64,000 nt of DNA, taken from Cyanidioschyzon merolae. Its lineage: Eukaryota. Location: assembly GCA_000091205.1 (NCBI GenBank), contig AP006489.2. One strand, written 5' to 3'. Of this stretch, positions 37,264 to 64,000 are shown piece after piece. Positions within the stretch are counted from its first letter, which is position 1; every line of letters starts with the position of its first letter. Both the position numbers and the translations under genes were made by a program. A model generated the notes under the pieces. The model saw only the letters and a program-made list of their open reading frames with translations, searched no databases and was not told the origin of the DNA.

Positions 37264-38886
37264 GTGTTCGCGCTATCTAGTGCACAATCAGTTCCGTTTC
37301 ACGCCATGGCTCGCAGGCACCTTTTCGCTGGCAGGTTTGCGGGATTCGCACCCGTCACTGGTGCGCTCTGGTTACGTCCAGGGCAGCGGGCGAGCTCACC
37401 GGTGACAGGCGCCTCGGACTCAGTATCGCGCCTTGGACAACGGCATCCGGTTTCTAGGCGTTGGCGGCAACAGCGAACCGGGCTGTTCAACGTGCGACTG
37501 TCCACGCGTCGGCTCCGGGTCTTTATCTCCACGGGGGAGGTCTCTGGTGATATGCACGGTGCTGCGCTAGCCCGGAGCCTCAAGCAGCAAGCGATGCATC
37601 GAGGTGGCTCGAGACAGCAGCAGCAGCTGCTGCTGCTGCGCGGAGTAGGCGGCCCAGCGATGCGACAAGAAGGTGTCGAGCTCTACGCCGACACGCTTCG
37701 CATCTCCTCCATTGGCCTCTATGAGGCACTGCGCTTTGTGGTGCCTGCTTATCTCGCATACGAAAAAGCAAAAAAGGAGCTGCTCGAGGATCCTCCGGAT
37801 GTCGCCGTTCTGATCGATTACACTGGACCGAATATGGCGCTGGCCACCTGGTTTCGCCAAAACCTGCCTGGTGTGCCGGTAATCTCGTACATCGGACCTC
37901 AGCAGTGGATCTGGGAAGCGAATGGGAAGCCAGCGCACCGTCTATTGGATTATTTTCCGATTCTGGCGACATGCTGCCGTTGTCTGGTTGCGATTTTCCC
38001 GCTAGAGGCAGCGTTCTACTGCCGAAAGCTCGAGGAGCTCGGGGCGCTTCCAAATCCACCGCCGCAAATTGTCTACGTAGGACATCCGATTCTGGATCTG
38101 GTTGAGCCCGTGACGCGAGACGCCGCTCGGGCAATGCTTCCATGGACAAGCTCGGAGCACGTGTGTGTGGCGTTGATGGTCGCCTCACGCCTACAGGAAA
38201 TCGGTGCTTTGCTTCCGGCGACAACGCGCGCAGCCCTGGCTATGGAAAAGTCGCTAGAGGCGAAGGACCCCCCGAAGCGCATTCGGTTTATCATTCCAAC
38301 GGCTAGACCTGAGTTTTCGGATCAAATTCGTCGTGTCTTGTTGGATCAGGGCGTGCCGTCGTCACGTATTGCGTCATGGGATCCGAACCTGCGCGAGATG
38401 CATCCCGAGACGCTCTTTTTCCTGGTACCACGAGATTATGCTCGCCTGGTGCTTGCAGCAGCCGATCTTGCAATCTGCAAGTCGGGCACGGTAAATTTGG
38501 AGGCGGCGGTGCTCGGTGTACCTCAAATCGTGCTGTATCGTTTATCGTGGACCTCGGCCTTTGTCATCCGTCACCTATTCCAGATGCAACTACCGTACGT
38601 GTCAGCAGTGAATGTAGTCTGTCTGGATCAGGCGATTGTGCCGGAGCTGCTGCAGGAGCACGTCACACCGGAGCGAATCCACGAAGAGGCCATGGCGTTG
38701 CTAGAGAATCGCAACGGCTGTGCTGACCGGATGCGTCACTCGTACCAGAGCCAGGTGCTGCCGCGCCTGCGTCTAGCCGAGGACTGCCCTGAGCCGGTCG
38801 TCGAGCGAACTGCGGCCGGCAGAGCTGCCGCCGTTGTTTGGCGCTACCTAGACCAGGCGCAAGAAAGCCGCACACTGGTCACCTGA
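37264..38886 (+). CDS. lpxB: Lipid-A-disaccharide synthase (LpxB, GT19) with an organellar-presequence-like N-terminal extension and an internal QQQQLLLL insertion
   Basis: Colinear with bacterial LpxB: 'RVFISTGEVSGDMHGAALARSLK' vs '[22 protein letters not shown]', 'GVGGPAMRQEGVE', 'PDVAVLIDYTGPNMALA', 'AICKSGTVNLEAAVLGVPQIVLYRLSWTSAFV'. A (cag)4(ctg)4 tract lies at about 37610-37640. Confidence 0.85.
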   Translation: MFALSSAQSVPFHAMARRHLFAGRFAGFAPVTGALWLRPGQRASSPVTGASDSVSRLGQRHPVSRRWRQQRTGLFNVRLSTRRLRVFISTGEVSGDMHGAALARSLKQQAMHRGGSRQQQQLLLLRGVGGPAMRQEGVELYADTLRISSIGLYEALRFVVPAYLAYEKAKKELLEDPPDVAVLIDYTGPNMALATWFRQNLPGVPVISYIGPQQWIWEANGKPAHRLLDYFPILATCCRCLVAIFPLEAAFYCRKLEELGALPNPPPQIVYVGHPILDLVEPVTRDAARAMLPWTSSEHVCVALMVASRLQEIGALLPATTRAALAMEKSLEAKDPPKRIRFIIPTARPEFSDQIRRVLLDQGVPSSRIASWDPNLREMHPETLFFLVPRDYARLVLAAADLAICKSGTVNLEAAVLGVPQIVLYRLSWTSAFVIRHLFQMQLPYVSAVNVVCLDQAIVPELLQEHVTPERIHEEAMALLENRNGCADRMRHSYQSQVLPRLRLAEDCPEPVVERTAAGRAAAVVWRYLDQAQESRTLVT

Positions 38887-40022: not shown

Positions 40023-41984
40023 TCAAACGCCTGATTCGAATGGTGTACGATCCTCGCGTTCTGTCTCCGCGTCAAGGTGCTGGCGACGTCGATCCTGCCG
40101 TTTTGTCCATCGATGGAAGGCTAGTGCTCCTGTCGAGATGCTCATCGTACTCATGGTCGCCAATGTCGGAAACCGTCGGGGCGACGACAGCGTAAAAGAT
40201 ACGCCGTACATGAGCAGTTCAGCGAGTGAGCACAGGGCGGCTTCGACGGCGGAGACCTCGCCGACAGCGCTTGCATCGACCATGGTTTGCATGATTTCGG
40301 TTTCGGCGGTGTCCCAGCACCAGAGGCCCCAGCGAGAGAGTGTCACGAAGACGAGAACACCAATGAGCAAGGGCGGTTGCTGATACGTTATCTGCGCGAC
40401 TGAGTTCTGCGCGGCGCTGGGGAGCGGCACCTCAGGAACGCGGACGAGCCACAAAAGCAGCTGCGCTGGGAGCAAGCACGCAAGCTGGCACAGCACGCCA
40501 ACGCGGCCTACCTGCAGCACAGACCAGTGGAGACGGGTGACAAGGATCTCGAAACTGAAGGTTGCAAGGATACCGATGATTGCGGATGCAGCACGGAAGA
40601 TGCCAATGGTGCTGCCATTCACGCCGCAATACGTCAGGAAACCGAACAGGAGGCCGCCAGGCGAAAGCACCGTGAAATAGAGACTAACATGTGCAAGGGA
40701 TGGTACAAAAGTTTCCTGTTCGTAATATAGTCGCCAGGATGAGAAGAGCTCTCGCAGGTGTTGATAAACCGTTCGAGCCGCAACCGCGACTCTAGTGGTT
40801 GTGCTTGGGATTGGCTCCTCACGAGTCGATGCTGTGCCCTGTACTTTGCGCCCGGTTCTCCGCGCTGCATCCTGCTGCTCGTTTGAGGCGTTCACGTTCT
40901 CGCCTCGGGCGCAGATTTGGCTCGCCCTGAACAGCGCAACGAGCTGAATAGCTAGCAGAAACGCCCCGAAACGCGCCACAAGTACAGAGCCTTGCACTTC
41001 ACCGCGCGAGGAGAGGAGCCAACCCACCAGCAGCGGCATTCCGATATCGATCGTCATGGTGATACGGCGCATACGCGCGTTTGCGATCGCCAGCTGCTCC
41101 TCTGTTTTGGAGCCATCTATTGCACCACTTTGGTACTGCTGGGCATGCACAGTGAGCGGTAACCACCGTTTCCAGAGCGAAATTTCCAGTGCGAATTCGC
41201 TGAGTGCCGCAATTGTACCGAAAACACAGAACCATAAAGTACCCTCAGGAATCGCGGTTGCCTGATCGTTTGGCCGGTACCGCGCAAGCAGAGGCATCCA
41301 AATCGCACAGAGCGATGTGCTGACTCCATACAATACGGAGGCAACGGCCGCTGTTCGGAAGCGCCAGCCCCAATCCAGCATTTTTCCAACCGTTGGGCCG
41401 AGTAGAAAGCACGCTCCGCGGCTGCTCAGCATGTAGATTGCCGCCGGCACGAACGAGCCATCCGTCCGGTTCAGCGCTCGCTGTGAGACTATCATTAAGA
41501 ATATTGGAACAACGAAGGTGAACGCCCTCTGGACGCCGCAGATGAGGGCATATGCAGTGTACAGCGGCAGGAACGCCAAAATGGACGGCTTCGCTTGTCG
41601 GCTGTGCTGCGTCGCTGGCTCACCGGTGCGGTTGGCGTCGTTCGCGGGGGTACTTTCGACTTCCGAACTTGCGTGAGTCCCTCCCGAGTCACTTTCAGGG
41701 GGTCTGCGACTCTCTGAAGGTGGCAGGAATTCCGTGTCCGCAGAGACAGTCGCAGACCTGCTCTCCGCAACGTGCTGTGCCTTCTGAGTGACCGCCTGCT
41801 GGAAGCCCGACGTTGCGACCTTTTCGGGCTGCGCAAGCACTACGCAGGTTTCAGCGGTCGCTTCAGCACACATATCAGAGCACACAGTGCCTCTCGTCAG
41901 GGTCAAAGTGACGGCTCCTGGTAAACAGTCTTGCCTCGCGTCGCCTCTGGGACAAGTCGACCGACCGTGCCTCAATTTGAGCAA
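40023..41984 (-). CDS. Multi-pass membrane transporter of the MFS-like superfamily, probably ferroportin/SLC40 family
   Basis: 653 aa with about 10-12 hydrophobic helices. 'RWGLWCWDTAETEIMQTMVDAS' resembles the ferroportin 'RIGLWSFDLTVTQLLQENV' block. N- and C-termini are hydrophilic. Confidence 0.4.
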   Translation of the reverse strand: MLKLRHGRSTCPRGDARQDCLPGAVTLTLTRGTVCSDMCAEATAETCVVLAQPEKVATSGFQQAVTQKAQHVAESRSATVSADTEFLPPSESRRPPESDSGGTHASSEVESTPANDANRTGEPATQHSRQAKPSILAFLPLYTAYALICGVQRAFTFVVPIFLMIVSQRALNRTDGSFVPAAIYMLSSRGACFLLGPTVGKMLDWGWRFRTAAVASVLYGVSTSLCAIWMPLLARYRPNDQATAIPEGTLWFCVFGTIAALSEFALEISLWKRWLPLTVHAQQYQSGAIDGSKTEEQLAIANARMRRITMTIDIGMPLLVGWLLSSRGEVQGSVLVARFGAFLLAIQLVALFRASQICARGENVNASNEQQDAARRTGRKVQGTASTREEPIPSTTTRVAVAARTVYQHLRELFSSWRLYYEQETFVPSLAHVSLYFTVLSPGGLLFGFLTYCGVNGSTIGIFRAASAIIGILATFSFEILVTRLHWSVLQVGRVGVLCQLACLLPAQLLLWLVRVPEVPLPSAAQNSVAQITYQQPPLLIGVLVFVTLSRWGLWCWDTAETEIMQTMVDASAVGEVSAVEAALCSLAELLMYGVSFTLSSPRRFPTLATMSTMSISTGALAFHRWTKRQDRRRQHLDAETEREDRTPFESGV

Positions 41985-45523: not shown

Positions 45524-47617
45524 ATGTCTCTAGTGCGTTCTCTAACAGAGCGCCGCTCCATATGTCTCCAATCTGTTTCGTCTCTTCTGCGCACTGAAGT
45601 GACGCCTAGCGAATACACGCAACGAAGGTCACGTGAGTGTGCAGCGCACCAGTCATCCACGTTGAACGCTCAAAGGGCGTGCTCACGGCACGCGCCTGCC
45701 TGGCAGCTGGTCGCGGGCTTCCAGCAGTCGTGCAGATCGCTTGAGAGGTCCGCTGAATACGATGCGAAATCACTCAGATATCCAGCGACAGGCACAACAG
45801 GACAAATCATGTCCATGCGACAGCGATCTTTTGGGGTGCAGTCACGGAGCCTGGGAGTGACCGTTGGTCCGGCCTCATCGCTGCCGCTCGAGTCGGAGGA
45901 GTCCGGATCTGGCACCAGCAAGCGCTCCAGTGGACCAGCTACTGAGGAGCGTGCCGCTGTCGCAGCAGCACTCGCATCGAGTGCTTCAGAAGCGAACGAA
46001 GTTGCCTCGTCTGCCAAGATATCTGGACTGCTACCACCGCCGCCTTCTGCTGAAACTCGCTTGGAGTCAGCTCCGCCCCTGAACCTGTTCGACGTGGAGG
46101 CGACATACGGCACAACGCCAACGCGTGATCTCATTCGATCGCTTTTTGTTCTCCGCACCGCTCAAATGGGATGGCTGGTGCGCTACGCACCGACACTTTA
46201 TCGCTGGACACAGCGCGTGCCATTGTTGCGAGAATCAACAAACCTATTCATTAAGTACACATTTTTCCGGCATTTCTGTGGCGGCGAGACGCTTTCCGAA
46301 TGCCGCGAGTACGTTGAAAAATTGCGTGCTCGTGGCGTCGGCTCTATTCTCGACTATTCGGCAGAGGGCGAAGCGGCGCCAATGAACGCGGCCGCAGTCG
46401 GGCGTCGCCGCGGAGATGGTCTGCTCCTGGAGGAATCGGATATCTCTCCTGATGAGGTACGTTACGACGGCGCCGCAAATGTGCTCATGACGACGGTGCA
46501 ATGGGCTGGCAACGAGGCCAGACACTGCGACACGATCAGCTGTCTCAAGGTATCAGCGCTTGCTCGGTTCGAGTTGCTGGAAAGGATCAGCGAGGCATTA
46601 GCTATTCGTTTTGGGAATCTGACGACGACCCACGATGGCACGCCATTCCTGCTATTAGGTCACTTTGATGCAAATGGCCTCGTTCGAGCGATAGCTGACT
46701 CTTACGAATTCGACGAGTCGGAAATTGGCATGGCAGGTGCTGTCGGCATGGCAGCGTCGGGCTCTGGAGCTGCTGTGGATCACGAGCCCAAGCAGCCGTC
46801 GGATTCGATTTTGGACCACGTGTCACTGCATCTTTTCAATGAGTATTTGTCGCCTGCGGAGCGCCTCGAATTCGCGCGGGTACTCTGTCGCCTCGATGCG
46901 GTGTGTTCTGAGGCAAGGCGCTATCGAGTCCCGATGCTGATCGATGCAGAGCAGTACTCCATTCAGACTGCGATTGATTTCTGTGCGGGACTGATGATGT
47001 TGCGACACAATCGCTCGTTTGAGTCCGACCAGGAAACACCAGCAATTATGTACTCCACTGTACAGTCGTATCTGAAAGATTCACCGGAACGCCTCAAGGC
47101 CTACCGCGAGCTTGCGAGTCGTTTCCGTTTCCGCTACGGTGTCAAGCAGGTGCGTGGTGCCTACATGGCCTCAGAGCGTCGACGCGCTGCTGCGGCGGGT
47201 CGCCCAGACCTATCACCCATCCACGACACGATCGAGGATACACACGCGAGCTACAATGCTGGACTGAGTGCGCTCATCGACGAGGTGCGGGCTGGCCACG
47301 CGGCGGCTCTATTTGCCACGCACAACGTGGAGTCGCTCCAGCGAGCAGTGGAGCTTGTTGGCTCCGACTCTTTACTGCGCCGAAACGCGGCGTTACGTTT
47401 CGCTCAGCTCTACGGGATGGGTGATTCGCTAACTTTCGGCCTTGCCAGGGCAGGCTTCAGAGCCTGCAAATACGTTCCATTCGGGCGCGTCGATGAGGTG
47501 ATGCCGTACCTGTTACGACGGCTGGAGGAGAATCACAGCGCGTTGGGAACGGCACCACGAGATATCTCGCACTTCTTGGCCGAACTGCGGCGTAGAGACC
47601 TCCGTGTGCCTTTATGA
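45524..47617 (+). CDS. PRODH: Proline dehydrogenase (PRODH, proline oxidase), mitochondrial-type
   Basis: PRODH signatures are present: 'VPMLIDAEQYSIQTAIDF', 'YGVKQVRGAYMASERRRA', 'QLYGMGDSLTFGLARAGFRACKYVPFGRVDEVMPYLLRRLEENHSALG'. Confidence 0.9.
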   Translation: MSLVRSLTERRSICLQSVSSLLRTEVTPSEYTQRRSRECAAHQSSTLNAQRACSRHAPAWQLVAGFQQSCRSLERSAEYDAKSLRYPATGTTGQIMSMRQRSFGVQSRSLGVTVGPASSLPLESEESGSGTSKRSSGPATEERAAVAAALASSASEANEVASSAKISGLLPPPPSAETRLESAPPLNLFDVEATYGTTPTRDLIRSLFVLRTAQMGWLVRYAPTLYRWTQRVPLLRESTNLFIKYTFFRHFCGGETLSECREYVEKLRARGVGSILDYSAEGEAAPMNAAAVGRRRGDGLLLEESDISPDEVRYDGAANVLMTTVQWAGNEARHCDTISCLKVSALARFELLERISEALAIRFGNLTTTHDGTPFLLLGHFDANGLVRAIADSYEFDESEIGMAGAVGMAASGSGAAVDHEPKQPSDSILDHVSLHLFNEYLSPAERLEFARVLCRLDAVCSEARRYRVPMLIDAEQYSIQTAIDFCAGLMMLRHNRSFESDQETPAIMYSTVQSYLKDSPERLKAYRELASRFRFRYGVKQVRGAYMASERRRAAAAGRPDLSPIHDTIEDTHASYNAGLSALIDEVRAGHAAALFATHNVESLQRAVELVGSDSLLRRNAALRFAQLYGMGDSLTFGLARAGFRACKYVPFGRVDEVMPYLLRRLEENHSALGTAPRDISHFLAELRRRDLRVPL

Positions 47618-54819: not shown

Positions 54820-56031
54820 ATGCAAGCTCTTTTCGTTTCTGTTCCGCTGTACCAGGAAAGACATATTGTTTGCGCGCGCGCTGCAACTCGAGCACCGTTC
54901 CCGCTGCGTACGCCTCGTAACGGGTGCTTCGCAGCTGGACATCGTCACCACTGCCAGCATCCGCTTCCTTTGGTGGTGCAGCGTTTGCCTGTAGCGCGCC
55001 GGCACCACGCGCTGCATCTTCGTATGGGCCCGAAACAGTCGCAGATCGCCGTGATCACTGGCGCGTCCTCTGGGGTCGGTCTGTATGCAGCTCGCGCTCT
55101 GATCAACAAGGGCAACTGGCACATCGTCATGGCATGTCGTGACGTCGACCGGGCGGAGCGCGCAGCAAACAGCGTAAACCTTCCAAAAGACGCCTATACA
55201 GTGCTGCATTGTGATCTGGCTGATTTCGCCTCTGTGTTGAAGTTTGTGAGAGAGCTGTCAAGTGTGGCGCGCGTCGACCACCTGGATGCCCTGATCTGCA
55301 ATGCCGCAATCTGGCATCCGCGGGACAAGAAACCGCGTTTCACGGTGGACGGCATCGAGGAAACCATGCAGGTATGCCATCTGAGCCATTTGCTTCTATG
55401 TCGGGAGCTGTTGCCGAAGCTGAAAATATCGCGCGGGCGCATTGTGTTTCTGACGACTCAGACACACTCGCCGAATTCGTTGCCGGGAAAGATTCCCCCG
55501 CAGGCTCGTCTCGGTGATTTGTCTGGTCTAGCCGCGGGGCTTGGTCCGCAGACGACGGGCATGGTGGACAGTGGCCCGTTTGAGCCCACAAAAGCCTACA
55601 AAGACGCCAAAGCCGCGAACGTGTTGACAATGAAGGCGCTTAGTGATCGATACGGCCGCGACGGGGTGACCTCTGTGGCGATTTTTCCGGGATGTGTCGC
55701 CGACAGCAACCTCTTCCGCGAAAAGCGTGGCTGGTTCCGCTACGTATTCTTCCCGATTCTTCAGAAGTACATCACTCGGCAATACGTTCCGAATGATGAG
55801 GCCGGCCGCCGCGTAGCCGAAGTGGCGACCCAGGGACAGTTCTCGGACTCGGGCTCGTATTATCAGTGGCGTGGCAAATATACGGAAGGTCGAGAGAAGA
55901 CGAAACCGCAGGTTATTGAACCAACATACGAAATCGACAAGGCAGATCAGCTTTACGAACTGAGTCTTGATCTGATCGACCAGGCGTTACGGCGGCGAGG
56001 CCTCAAGTCGACTATCTTGGCCCCTGTCTAA
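54820..56031 (+). CDS. POR: Light-dependent NADPH:protochlorophyllide oxidoreductase (LPOR, SDR family) with an N-terminal transit-peptide-like extension
   Basis: Colinear with plant POR: 'ITGASSGVGLYAARALINKGNWHIVMACRD..AERAA', 'PKDAYTVLHCDLADFASV', 'RLGDLSGLAAGL', 'TKAYKDAKAANVLTM', 'PGCVADSNLFRE', 'LQKYITRQYVPNDEAGRRVAEVA'. The ATG start was checked in the sequence. Confidence 0.9.
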   Translation: MQALFVSVPLYQERHIVCARAATRAPFPLRTPRNGCFAAGHRHHCQHPLPLVVQRLPVARRHHALHLRMGPKQSQIAVITGASSGVGLYAARALINKGNWHIVMACRDVDRAERAANSVNLPKDAYTVLHCDLADFASVLKFVRELSSVARVDHLDALICNAAIWHPRDKKPRFTVDGIEETMQVCHLSHLLLCRELLPKLKISRGRIVFLTTQTHSPNSLPGKIPPQARLGDLSGLAAGLGPQTTGMVDSGPFEPTKAYKDAKAANVLTMKALSDRYGRDGVTSVAIFPGCVADSNLFREKRGWFRYVFFPILQKYITRQYVPNDEAGRRVAEVATQGQFSDSGSYYQWRGKYTEGREKTKPQVIEPTYEIDKADQLYELSLDLIDQALRRRGLKSTILAPV

Positions 56032-56368: not shown

Positions 56369-57808
56369 TTGAACGATCTGTGGGTATTCGATATCAAACT
56401 GGGTCAACGGGCGTGGATTAATGGAAGCTCGGTAGTGAATGCTCCAGCAAGATATGGAGCATTGAACGAATCCCACCCAAGGATTGTACCAGGTGCTCGC
56501 CATGGATCAGCCTTCTGGAACACCAGTGAGACCGATTCGATCATATTTGTTGGAAATGGATACATAAACACGACCGGCAGTGACTTTCTCAATGGTATCT
56601 TTGCATTAAAGAAAACATTCCCTACTCCAACACCGAAACCTACGCGGACACCCACCCCCATCTGCACCGATGAGCTCTGCGGATCTCCGGTACAGTGCAT
56701 CAACCAGGACGCTTGCGAGCAAGTCGGGCGCTGCTTCAACTCCCAGACGAACGCGTGCACCCTGAAGAGCGTCTCAGCGGCGTGCAGCGCTGTTCCAGTG
56801 ACGCAGCGCGTCACCTGCGGTTGGAGCTACATCTACCCCGACGAGTGCACTGCGATACCGGGATGCTGCTGGCAGCCAACGGCAAACGGCATCCTCGCGC
56901 CCTGGTGCTACTACGACATCAACCATGCACCCCAGGCTTCCGTAGCGCGCCAGGAGGTGCAGGCACCAGTTCCCCTCTGCCCGTCACCGAGAGCGCAGCG
57001 CCAGCCGTGCGGCAACGCGGGTATCAACCAGTTTACCTGCTATGCCCAGGGCTGCTGCTACGACTCGCAGGCGCAGAACCAGTGGGTGCAGAACGGCAAG
57101 CAGCAGAGCGACTTTGCGTCGAACCTGTACTGCTTCCAGCCTGAGAAGACGTGCGCGGTGGGCGAGTTTGAGCGCCAACCGTGCTCGAACGCGCTGAACC
57201 AGAACCAGCAGCTGAACAATAACATCAACAGTAGCCAGTTTGTGCGTCTGCTGAACACGGTCCTTTACGGAGAGCAGCACGGGACGCAGCGCACGAGCTA
57301 CCCGCCGCAGCAGTGTCTTTAGGCTGGTTGCTGCCTGGGGCCCGGCAACGAGTGCTCCCAGCCGGTTACCGAGTATGTTTGTCAGGCGTATGGGTACGTC
57401 CCGAACTCGCTGAACAGCACGACCGGCAACGTATCGAACTCGACGTATATTCTGTGCGGCCCGGAGCGCTGCAACGCCGAGATGGAGAATTGCACGTCAA
57501 ACCCGTTCAGCAACAGCAATAACGTGCAACAGCAGCAGCAGCAGCAGCAGCAGCGACAGGTGCCGTTGCCGTCATTCTGTGTATGCAAGGACTCTACAGT
57601 TCACTCCGGGACGTACCTGATGCCTTCGGACAACCTTGTGAACAAGGTGCGTTGCTGCCGCTCTGGCGAGGAGTGTATCAACAGGCAGTGTGTGGTGTTT
57701 AGTGCTACACGGTCTCCGAGTGCCGTTATTGCGACTGCAACTGCGTCTCCAAGTGTGTCGGTATTGGTGTCGACCTCGACGCATGCCTCAGCAAGTGCTT
57801 CAGTATGA
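56369..57808 (+). CDS. Secreted-type mosaic protein (probably the 3' exons). From N to C: a kelch-repeat blade, a PT-rich linker, a Cys-rich module, about 2-3 trefoil (P-type) domains, a polyQ tract, then a Cys-rich tail and Ser/Thr-rich tail
   Basis: Kelch-blade motif 'DLWVFD...W...PARYGA...HGSAFW'; linker 'PTPTPKPTRTPTP'; trefoil 'RVTCGWSYIYPDECTAIPGCCWQP...APWCYY' and 'RQPCGNAGINQFTCYAQGCCYDS...'. The two ORFs 56369..57322 and 57482..57808 are in different frames, so an intron or frameshift is likely. The tool start is TTG, so the true 5' exons probably lie upstream. Confidence 0.5.
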
Positions 57809-58489: not shown

Positions 58490-60676
58490 ATGCGAAAAAG
58501 ATATTTTTCCATAGTGAGACTACTGGTGATAGTATTGGTTGTGTCGAGTACACACTCAGTTCGTGGAGTTTTGTCATCCGAAGATACTTTTTTATGGACC
58601 TGGATCGGTGGCAGTAACTCTACCGACAGTTCAGGTAGCTACGGTGTTCAGGGTGTGCCAAACACCAGCACCGTGCCTCCGGCGCGGTACGGTGCGGCCT
58701 TCTGGACCGGCGTTGACGGGGTGCTCTGGTTGTTTGGTGGCAGCGACTCGAGCGGCGTCTTCGGTGATCTCTGGAACTACAATCTGAGCACGTTCTCTTG
58801 GACCTGGGTTGGAGGCTCTGCATCCCTCAACTCTGAAGGGGTATACGGCTCCCTCGGAGTTCCCAACAAGAGCAACTATCCGCCTTCGAGGACGGAATCC
58901 GCTTCATGGAGCGACAGCTACGGAAACCTTTGGCTATATGGAGGCCAGAATTTTAACTCGGGCTATAGTGATATGTGGATGTATAATGTATCGTCGGGCG
59001 AATGGACCTGGGTGCAGGGATCCACCGAGACCAATGTTTCCCCGATATATGGTACTCTTGGGAACTCTTCTTCTAGCAACACGCCTGGCGCCCGTTTCCA
59101 ACCCGCAACCTGGGTTGGCCTAGATGGCCAGTTTTATCTCTTTGGTGGATTCAAACCTTTTGGTCCTCTTTACGGTGACTTGTGGCAGTACAACACAGTG
59201 ACCAACGAATGGAGCTGGATAGGTGGCACTCAACAGCAGACTCCCTCTGGAAGCTATGGTACGTTTCGCCAGGCATCGCCGAACAATTATCCCGCTGGAC
59301 GTGCCGGAGCCACATCGTGGCGAGACCTTGATGGGAACTTTTGGCTCTTTGGAGGTTTCGGACAGATTGTCGGATCTAGCAATCTTCTCAATGATTTATG
59401 GCTGTACAATGTCAGCTCCAAAGAATGGACTTGGATGTCTGGAAATGACAGTGTTGGTTCGAATGGGTCGGTATACGGCGAGAAAGGAGTGCCGTCATCG
59501 AGCAACACTCCGGGGTACAGATCCGGTTCCTCTGGATTTGTAGACTCGTCAAACACTCTGTATCTCTTCGGTGGTAGTTCACCCGGTGTCTGCAACGACC
59601 TGTGGACGTTCAATATTACGAGTCTTGAATGGACTTGGGTAGACGGTGACGATACAACGAATGGAGCCTATAGCTACGGCGAGGTTAACAAGACAAGCAA
59701 TACAACGCTTCCACCTCCGCGATACGGTGCAGTTCTTTGGAATACCGATCAAAACGACCCGGTCCTATTCGGAGGCCAAGGCAGCTCCGGTAGCTATAAC
59801 GACCTCTTCACATTATACATCGCAACATCGACGCCTATGCCGACCGCAACACCGACTCCGACGGCATCACCGACGCCCTCCGTTACTGCATCACCGTCGG
59901 CAACAACGAATGTGACGCAGACCGCTGTAGGCGAAGGTTCTGCGGTCTGCTTCCCCGCGGATGCCTCGGTGCTGATCGATGGTCTGGGCAACAGTCTGCT
60001 TATAAGCGAGCTTCGATCAGGTATGGCCGTGATCGGCGTCAATGGGCGTGGGCAACTGGTCGAAGACAGTGTACTAGGATGGTTGCATAACGAGCCCGGC
60101 GCTACTGCAGAGATTCTTGCGATCAAGACGCTTTCCGGAAAGCAGCTGCGTCTGACGAGACAGCATCTGGTATATCGAGTGATCGAACACTCTAGAGACT
60201 TTGATAGTATGACGACCGCTTTCTCGTGTATTTCACAGAAGCAGCAGCAGCAGCATCAGAAGCACGTAGGTCAGAGCCTTGAGCTGGGTACCTCCGCCGT
60301 TGTGGCAGTTTTCGCGGAAGATATCCGCGTTGGCGACGCTCTGCTGGACGTTGCTGCGCAGCTGCCGGACCCCGTTGTGGCAATCGAGACTTTAGTAACG
60401 CACAATGGTCTCTATGCGCCGTTGACTCGCTCAGGGCGCCTTGCGGTCGACGGTGTTCTCGTGAGCTGCTACGGGACGTACGCATCGCATGCCGTGGCAC
60501 ATGCAGTGTTGTGGCCTGCGCGGGTCGATGCTCTGCGCAAGGTATGGGGATCAGGGCTCGGCACAGAGGGTATTGTGGGTATCATGCCGTATGCAGAAAG
60601 GCTCTATCACATTTGGACGAGTGCAGCACGTGTTCTAACGGAGGCTCGCGTAAGTGTTGTGGTTGCAGCCTGCTGA
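58490..60676 (+). CDS. Secreted kelch-repeat (beta-propeller) protein with a Pro/Thr linker and a C-terminal Hedgehog-type Hint (Hog) autoprocessing domain
   Basis: Signal peptide MRKRYFSIVRLLVIVLVVSSTHSVRG; six or more kelch blades (repeated 'DLW.YN....W.W..G...P..R'); linker 'TPMPTATPTPTASPTPSVTASPS'. The Hint module starts at the conserved Cys ('GSAVCFPADASVLIDG...ISELRSGMAVIGVNG...LTRQHLVY' vs Hh-C 'GCFPGDA.V.L.G....ISEL..GDRVLA...LTPAHL') and ends 'HNGLYAPLTRSGRLAVDGVLVSCYGTYASHAVAHAV'. Confidence 0.8.
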   Translation: MRKRYFSIVRLLVIVLVVSSTHSVRGVLSSEDTFLWTWIGGSNSTDSSGSYGVQGVPNTSTVPPARYGAAFWTGVDGVLWLFGGSDSSGVFGDLWNYNLSTFSWTWVGGSASLNSEGVYGSLGVPNKSNYPPSRTESASWSDSYGNLWLYGGQNFNSGYSDMWMYNVSSGEWTWVQGSTETNVSPIYGTLGNSSSSNTPGARFQPATWVGLDGQFYLFGGFKPFGPLYGDLWQYNTVTNEWSWIGGTQQQTPSGSYGTFRQASPNNYPAGRAGATSWRDLDGNFWLFGGFGQIVGSSNLLNDLWLYNVSSKEWTWMSGNDSVGSNGSVYGEKGVPSSSNTPGYRSGSSGFVDSSNTLYLFGGSSPGVCNDLWTFNITSLEWTWVDGDDTTNGAYSYGEVNKTSNTTLPPPRYGAVLWNTDQNDPVLFGGQGSSGSYNDLFTLYIATSTPMPTATPTPTASPTPSVTASPSATTNVTQTAVGEGSAVCFPADASVLIDGLGNSLLISELRSGMAVIGVNGRGQLVEDSVLGWLHNEPGATAEILAIKTLSGKQLRLTRQHLVYRVIEHSRDFDSMTTAFSCISQKQQQQHQKHVGQSLELGTSAVVAVFAEDIRVGDALLDVAAQLPDPVVAIETLVTHNGLYAPLTRSGRLAVDGVLVSCYGTYASHAVAHAVLWPARVDALRKVWGSGLGTEGIVGIMPYAERLYHIWTSAARVLTEARVSVVVAAC

Positions 60677-63600: not shown

Positions 63601-64000
63601 TTAGGTACGATGGGAACACAATTCGACAAGAATATAAGCAGAAATATATCGAAAATAACATGAAAAGAGCACTTTCTTTGTTCAGTTAAGATATTTGTGT
63701 AACAATGGAGACAACCTAGCACCGAAAAAGCAGCATTTAAGTACTGTGAGATGTTGAGAGAAGAAAACGGAGACAAAAAATGTTGAAGAACGACACACAC
63801 GAAACCAACACAAGCGAGCGCGCGATTCAGACCACGCGCGAAGGCCGGGGCCCAAAACATAGGAAACGACGAGGCGGTCAAGCTAAAATGCATCGATACT
63901 ACTGCGCGTACTGGAGTATCCAGGTGGCCACACACAGTCCAATGATGGAAAAGATTCCCCTCGGATCAATCGCTAGAGACATTAATACTGGAATGGGGGG

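Follow-up and report, generated by a model that had tools for sequence, protein, structure and literature searches.

A subtelomeric kelch propeller-Hog fusion gene of Cyanidioschyzon merolae, CMG220C, with an intact set of Hedgehog-type catalytic positions

Genes with kelch (K), trefoil (T) and hint (H) domains are the most prevalent duplicated subtelomeric genes of the Cyanidiales, and their domains are linked by a Thr/Pro/Ala-rich linker; Cyanidioschyzon has 11 K+H copies and Cyanidiococcus has three (Cho et al., 2023, PMC9812998). In Cyanidioschyzon merolae, the right end of chromosome 7 (7R) is listed among the chromosome ends with a subtelomeric 'PH' element, in which P stands for protochlorophyllide oxidoreductase and H for a hedgehog-like protein (Nozaki et al., 2007, PMC1955436). 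More recently, the genes were reclassified as non-Hedgehog (non-Hh) Hog genes, of which 17 were counted in C. merolae (Plant Cell 2026, PMC13353863). Here we analyze one such gene, an open reading frame (ORF) at 58490..60676 on the plus strand of a 64,000-nucleotide stretch of C. merolae DNA (contig AP006489.2, below called the window). A first-pass annotation, made from the sequence alone, had described it as a secreted kelch beta-propeller joined to a self-cleaving domain of the Hedgehog type (Hog).

The ORF starts with ATG, continues in a single uninterrupted frame and encodes 728 residues. The protein is identical to BAM79709.1 / XP_005535995.1, annotated as "similar to hedgehog protein", from chromosome 7 (584,452 bp) of C. 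merolae 10D. The gene is CMG220C, labelled "KTH variants: K+Hog" in Data Set 8 of PMC13353863. The last nine bases of the window (63992..64000, plus strand) are one unit of AATGGGGGG, the telomere repeat that Nozaki et al. (2007, PMC1955436) reported for every chromosome end of C. merolae. The window therefore represents the right end of chromosome 7, and the stop codon of CMG220C lies 3,324 bp (about 3.3 kb) from this end. Both the subtelomeric position and the order of kelch, T/P/A-rich linker and hint domains are those of the Cyanidiales K/T/H family. Signal peptide, kelch, T/P/A linker and Hint follow each other as in the K+H proteins of C. merolae and Cyanidiococcus, with no family-level difference, and the protein is 85-90% identical to paralogs on other chromosomes. 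C. merolae has a subtelomeric kelch+Hog (K+Hog) family, to which CMG220C belongs.

The first-pass annotation had considered the architecture unusual. The architecture is real, but the fusion is not new, since it has already been annotated and published as a chromosome-end multigene family (K+H or K+Hog, including the 11 K+H copies mentioned above). The view of the host as a photosynthetic protist was correct, C. merolae being a red alga. A reading in which the kelch and Hint parts belong to two separate genes was rejected, because both halves lie in one ORF that is identical to an annotated, expressed protein, and because the architecture recurs in paralogs and orthologs.

The C-terminal part of the protein matched the Pfam Hint profile PF01079 with 106.4 bits (gathering cutoff 29.7; E = 2.1e-30) over residues 484-708, corresponding to profile positions 10-207 of 213. 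A match of this strength is not due to chance, and the significant Hint-family match called for earlier was thus obtained. A PDB sequence search with CMG220C returned human Sonic hedgehog (SHH) with E = 3.1e-10 and also Drosophila Hedgehog (Hh). A word-indexed search with the Hog half reached cyanidiophytes and one Porphyra protein only, and an exhaustive profile search reached Hedgehog and other Hog proteins. Based on PF01079, on a profile alignment to 1AT0, 6TYY and SHH, on a structure model and on Foldseek comparisons, we place the Hint module of the Hog domain at residues 487-662 (59948..60475, plus strand).

The Hog model was built on residues 470-728. The predicted local distance difference test score (pLDDT) of its Hint core was mostly 75-93, at residues ~485-567 and ~601-662. 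In a Foldseek search of this model against the PDB, the C-terminal domain of Drosophila Hedgehog (Hh-C, 1AT0) ranked first, with an E-value of 1.3e-11, a template modelling (TM) score of 0.87 and a root-mean-square deviation of 2.6. The D46H mutant of the same domain (6TYY) ranked second (E = 2.1e-11), and BIL domains and inteins followed at E = 2e-8 and weaker.

To map the catalytic residues, a profile was built from the Hog domains of cyanidiophytes and Porphyra and was then aligned to Hh-C and SHH. The nucleophile is C487 (motif A; codon 59948-59950, plus strand), equivalent to C258 of Drosophila melanogaster (Dm) Hh and C198 of SHH. Of the 139 aligned relatives that cover this position, 138 have a cysteine there. 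T556 and H559, in the sequence LTRQHL (60155-60166, plus strand), form the TxxH of motif B and correspond to Dm Hh T326 and H329. C660 of the SCY motif (motif J; 60467-60469, plus strand), embedded in VSC660YG, aligns to ASCYA and corresponds to Dm Hh C400. All catalytic positions were intact in every full-length paralog and ortholog that was examined. The three residues that had been singled out for confirmation (catalytic Cys, Thr and His) were therefore found and aligned to Hh-C, and the Hog motifs reported in the first-pass annotation, CFPADA (residues 487-492), ISELRSGMAV (505-514) and VDGVLVSCYGTYASHAVAHA (653-672), were likewise all present. Cleavage had been expected at a G|C junction, and this detail was in error: the residue before C487 is Val486 (...GEGSAV|CFPADA), so that the predicted scissile bond is V486|C487.

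One further position departs from the Hedgehog pattern. Where Dm Hh has the general base D303 (D46), CMG220C has H533 (60086-60088, plus strand), which separates it from Hedgehog proper, but not from Hog domains. The engineered D303H enzyme (PDB 6TYY) keeps its structure and its cholesterolysis activity and accepts more sterols (reviewed in PMC9163320). The exhaustive profile search yielded 7,466 Hog representatives, and 160 sequences, consisting of the best hits and the cyanidiophyte paralogs, were aligned. In this alignment, the general-base position was occupied by His in 108 sequences and by Asp in 45, a sample biased toward His because the search profile itself carries His. C-H-T-H-C was the commonest combination of the catalytic residues. 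As the D303H enzyme is active and His is commoner than Asp among the aligned Hog hits, we do not regard His533 as a defect.

Downstream of the Hint module, residues 663-728 together with the stop codon (60476..60676, plus strand) form a tail that resembles the sterol recognition region (SRR) or adduct recognition region (ARR) and ends in ...VVVAAC. It is supported by the PF01079 match, which extends to profile position 207 of 213, and by a MAFFT alignment with the tails of sturgeon Shh and ascidian Hh. In this alignment, AHAVLWPARV of CMG220C is paired with AHWAFAPVRL, and GIMPYAERLYHIW, which contains GIMPYAERLY (motif K), is paired with GVHWYSNALYQLG of sturgeon Shh and GILPYAEFFYHVG of ascidian Hh. 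The two stretches align to the motifs AH..AP.R and G(V/I)..Y(S/A)..L that mark a C-terminal SRR/ARR, and they correspond to motifs J and K of Bürglin (2008). The tail is strongly conserved between Cyanidioschyzon and Cyanidiococcus, although the Hog domains of the two genera are only ~53% identical, which argues for selection on the tail. The terminal tripeptide A-A-C (residues 726-728, 60665-60673) was shared by all complete cyanidiophyte Hog proteins examined.

Within the Hint module, a Gln-rich low-complexity insertion follows just after the TxxH motif (residues ~568-600; 60191..60289, plus strand). It was modelled with pLDDT below 50 and is gapped or variable in other Hog domains. Inteins carry an endonuclease domain at the same topological site of the Hint fold. 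Some ascidian Hh proteins also have inserts at this site.

CMG220C and metazoan Hh-C (1AT0, 6TYY; SHH 7E2I) have in common the Hint fold (TM 0.87), the starting Cys, TxxH, the Cys of SCY, SRR motifs J and K, and a secretory precursor. CMG220C differs from Hedgehog in its kelch cargo, in His533 in place of Asp303, in Val instead of Gly at position -1, and in the Gln-rich insert after TxxH. Pfam found no match to HH_signal (PF01085) in CMG220C, and the N-terminal half is Kelch, so that the protein is not a bona fide Hedgehog. All the sequence and fold criteria that were tested place CMG220C in the Hog family, the Asp general base being the single exception. Inteins and BIL domains have the Hint fold and the chemistry of the first step, an N-S acyl shift, in common with Hog domains. 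The structural match to them was weaker than the match to Hh-C, with target-normalised TM scores of 0.35-0.78 (hits with E <= 1e-3) compared to 0.87. The possibility that the domain is an intein was rejected for this reason, and also because a C-extein and a splicing motif G with its terminal Asn are both lacking. After the Hint module, the protein continues for 66 residues, as the SRR-like tail, and does not end at a splicing junction.

Among other non-Hh Hog proteins, nematode Warthog and Groundhog, choanoflagellate Hoglet, the AIG1-Hog proteins of the Glomus GIN1 type and the Hog proteins of Porphyra/Pyropia follow the same design, any cargo plus Hog, usually with a signal peptide. A His at the general-base position is common in these proteins as well. 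The Cys of motif J, which is often lost in multicellular red-algal Hog domains, is kept in CMG220C.

The N-terminus of CMG220C is a signal peptide (residues 1-26, MRKRYFSIVRLLVIVLVVSSTHSVRG; 58490..58567, plus strand). Its cleavage position is approximate, and the most hydrophobic Kyte-Doolittle window covers residues 6-24. The published prediction agrees with the first-pass annotation on this point: for CMG220C, SignalP-5.0 gives SP(Sec/SPI) and Phobius gives 0 transmembrane segments (PMC13353863 Data Set 8).

The signal peptide is followed by the cargo, a six-bladed kelch beta-propeller (residues ~27-444; 58568..59821, plus strand), which was recognized by Pfam Kelch families (from E = 1.3e-36), by its structure model and by Foldseek. 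Six repeats marked by WxW were found at a spacing of ~68-72 residues. The AlphaFold model of the propeller (pLDDT 92.2; predicted TM score 0.90) has 24 strands, arranged as six blades of four strands each. The best Foldseek matches were the six-bladed kelch domains of LZTR1, KLHDC3, NS1-BP and KLHDC2 (~1e-15). Profile matches, model and Foldseek thus all describe repeated four-stranded blades that close into a propeller, bearing out the earlier count of at least six blades. With the propeller and a Hint fold closest to Hh-C, the structures predicted for the two halves are those that had been anticipated.

We also considered, and rejected, the idea that the propeller is an enzyme of the galactose oxidase or NanM type. 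Galactose oxidase is a seven-bladed propeller with a copper site that includes a Tyr-Cys cross-link. The CMG220C propeller has six blades and a single Cys (C368), the protein has no Pfam NANM match, and no galactose oxidase was present among the 50 best Foldseek matches listed. The K domain was labelled galactose oxidase by Cho et al. (2023, PMC9812998). Given the composition of the 50 matches listed and the single Cys of the propeller, we read this label as a superfamily name, and not as an enzymatic assignment.

Between propeller and Hog domain lies a T/P/S/A-rich, mucin-like linker (residues 445-486, ATSTPMPTATPTPTASPTPSVTASPSATTNVTQTAVGEGSAV; 59822..59947, plus strand), which ends at the predicted scissile residue Val486. 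It corresponds to the Pro/Thr-rich linker noted before. An 18-bp tandem repeat is found within the linker DNA, at 59840-59874.

Expression of CMG220C was taken from the literature. It is haploid-biased, with ~16 transcripts per million (TPM) in diploid MS1 cells (walled), ~224 in haploid MS1-Ha3 and ~377 in haploid 10D (wall-less) (PMC13353863 Data Set 8), values which multi-mapping reads can blur among ~90%-identical paralogs. The corresponding log fold changes are -3.5 and -4.3 (false discovery rate 0), and expression is ~14–24-fold higher in wall-less haploid cells (PMC13353863). C. merolae Hog genes are mostly expressed in the haploid phase, and a Cyanidiococcus K+Hog ortholog was far more abundant in the haploid proteome (PMC13353863).

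Cleavage, the nature of the adduct, surface display and a ligand of the propeller are inferred, the cleavage reaction by homology with Hedgehog autoprocessing (PMC9163320). In the resulting scheme, the signal peptide would route the 78-kDa precursor to the endoplasmic reticulum, where the propeller would be N-glycosylated and the T/P/S-rich linker probably O-glycosylated. Cys487 would then attack the carbonyl of Val486, and an N-to-S acyl shift, aided by T556/H559, would give a thioester as in Hedgehog. This thioester would be resolved by a nucleophile that the SRR-like tail holds in place and that His533 activates; the likeliest candidate is the 3-OH of a membrane sterol. Cleavage at V486|C487 would leave an N-terminal fragment ending in ...GEGSAV and a Hog fragment starting with CFPADASVLIDGLGNSLLISELR. 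The former would be a propeller plus stalk of ~49 kDa (unglycosylated) with a C-terminal lipid ester, and the latter, of ~26 kDa, would be discarded. Finally, the wall-less haploid cell would display the propeller, on its mucin-like stalk, on the outside of the plasma membrane, where it would be one among several variant surface glycoproteins. For this scheme as a whole, from import to display of a sterol-esterified propeller, we consider the chances to be about even.

The distribution of N-glycosylation sequons fits this topology. All 14 sequons of the protein are located N-terminal to C487, 13 of them in the propeller. The 14 observed compare with 8.1±2.4 expected from shuffled sequences, and the fraction of shuffles reaching 14 was 0.0145. 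In the Hog domain there were none, neither here nor in six relatives, whose N-terminal parts have 9-16. The enrichment in the N-terminal part and the consistency across relatives carry the weight in this comparison, and fit an exported, glycosylated cargo combined with a processing domain that would be discarded.

A sterol is favored as the nucleophile, because simple hydrolysis would need neither a conserved general base nor SRR motifs, and because C. merolae is predicted to synthesize sterols via cycloartenol (PMC2817430). Several points weigh against the scheme, in addition to the read-mapping caveat above. Taken by itself, the lack of sequons in the Hog half is not significant, since this half is Asn-poor (expectation 0.5). 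The residue at position -1 is the beta-branched Val, and not the Gly of Hedgehog. The tail was modelled as helical, but with a low pLDDT of 30-44. As of a 2009 survey, the sterols of C. merolae were uncharacterized (PMC2817430), and the searchable literature yielded no biochemical test of a Hog domain from outside the metazoans. Finally, Bürglin (2008) coined the term ARR precisely because what non-Hh Hog domains attach had not been defined.

Alternatively, the protein may cleave itself but acquire no lipid. The thioester at V486|C487 would then be resolved by water or a small thiol, the product would be a soluble secreted glycoprotein, and the Hog domain would serve only as a maturation or quality-control module. 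In favor of this reading, the core nucleophile and TxxH are intact, the protein has no transmembrane segment, the Val at -1 together with the low-confidence tail leaves the sterol step unsupported, and the adduct of non-Hh Hog domains is undefined (Bürglin, 2008). Yet hydrolysis requires neither general base nor SRR, whereas H533 and the tail motifs AH..L.P.R and G-I-x-x-Y-A-x-x-L-Y are kept across cyanidiophyte genera, and the SRR-like tail motifs are common to true Hedgehog. We regard lipid-free cleavage as the main rival of the scheme, possible though somewhat doubtful.

The retained base and tail could also serve transfer to an acceptor other than a sterol, such as another lipid, a glycan hydroxyl or a matrix component, which would make the tail an adduct recognition region in the proper sense, and not one for sterols. 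A His general base, as in D303H, loosens substrate geometry, the tail is unlike the SRR of Hh outside the short common motifs, and construction of the extracellular matrix has been suggested as one possible role (PMC13353863). Motif K, however, is common to the cholesterol-transferring Hh proteins, and the searched literature yielded no precedent for a non-sterol Hog adduct, so that we consider a non-sterol acceptor unlikely. That the Hog domain has lost its catalytic activity, or that the gene is subtelomeric junk, with the protein secreted uncleaved or not made, is highly improbable, for although the family is recently duplicated, gene-converted and subtelomeric and a truncated kelch+trefoil relic adjoins the gene, the ORF is intact, as are the catalytic positions of every full-length paralog and ortholog examined, haploid cells contain 200-380 TPM of transcript, and an orthologous K+Hog protein was found in the proteome.

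Returning to sterol-linked display, a broader idea may be put forward tentatively, and we think it more doubtful than the processing scheme itself. The K+Hog proteins might form a sterol-anchored variant surface coat, in which Hedgehog-type cholesterolysis with a naturally sterol-tolerant His base would act as an alternative to the glycosylphosphatidylinositol anchor outside animals. About 11 interchangeable, gene-converting kelch glycoproteins, with a propeller of perhaps bacterial origin, would then cover the naked membrane of haploid, mating-competent cells at pH 1-2. If this were true, protein sterylation would predate animals and would have been recruited for cell-surface display, and not for signalling.

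As a discovery, the locus adds little, since the gene, the fusion, the subtelomeric family and the haploid-biased expression have all been published. Its remaining value is that of a test case. Self-cleavage and sterol attachment by non-animal Hog domains have been a question since Bürglin (2008), and C. merolae lends itself to genetics and has almost no introns. The residue map (V486|C487, H533, T556/H559, C660, motif K) supplies the mutants and the predicted products for a biochemical study of CMG220C.

With respect to the cargo, a search with the full protein pointed to bacteria. Among the 120 best matches, all named sources were bacterial except for the cyanidiophyte paralogs, and the rest were unnamed metagenome sequences. 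The bacterial matches were secreted kelch propellers of Bacteroidota and others (JGI label 'N-acetylneuraminic acid mutarotase'), with 32-45% identity over the propeller. They have the blade signature LNDLW.Y....WTW..G...G.YG..G.....N.PG.R....W.D..G.LWLFGG in common with CMG220C. Many of them carry tails of the PF18962 family, a sorting domain of the type IX secretion system. The bacterial kelch proteins are longer (mostly ~900-1,250 residues), so that a higher number of repeats is probable, and a Hint domain is absent from all of those listed. These similarities hint at horizontal transfer of the propeller from bacteria, with the reservation that they come from a similarity search, and not a phylogeny, in a mostly prokaryotic database.

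We also surveyed the cargo of other Hog proteins with Pfam, using the 70 Hog representatives of at least 300 residues out of 146 new matches. HH_signal was found in 9 of them, the AIG1 GTPase domain in 11 and Kelch in one. This one, the only other kelch+Hog protein among the 70, is from the red alga Compsopogon caeruleus (UniRef A0A7S1TJP3); in it, a propeller, an S/T/P linker and a Hog domain with a His base follow one another as in CMG220C. Its kelch repeats are of the classical short type. A phmmer search of the 146 Hog hits with the CMG220C propeller gave no match, and the Compsopogon kelch part, recognized by Pfam instead, showed no significant similarity to it. On this basis, the cyanidiophyte and Compsopogon fusions may be independent, that is, convergent.

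Within C. merolae, the closest comparison is with the paralog BAM81404.1 on a different chromosome (852,727-bp record). The two proteins differ at 32 positions, all of them within residues 1-227, and residues 228-728 are identical. This mosaic suggests recent gene conversion between subtelomeres.

In the window, CMG220C is preceded by the gene that represents the P of the PH element. CMG217C (54820..56031, plus strand) encodes NADPH:protochlorophyllide oxidoreductase and matched Pfam adh_short (short-chain dehydrogenase) with E = 2.6e-23. The published gene table puts CMG217C immediately before CMG220C, with no gene between them (PMC13353863 Data Set 8). Between the two, at 56369..57322 (plus strand), we found the kelch+trefoil (K+T) relic, which is truncated at its 5' end, has no ATG, and consists of one kelch blade, a Pro/Thr-rich linker and two trefoil domains (Trefoil PF00088, E = 1.4e-15, two stretches). 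Its kelch piece aligned best with blade 6 of the K+Hog protein. Further genes in the window encode a homologue of LpxB (lipid-A-disaccharide synthase; 37264-38886, plus strand), ferroportin (40023-41984, minus strand) and proline dehydrogenase (45524-47617, plus strand). For a red alga, the LpxB homologue is a mildly notable gene.

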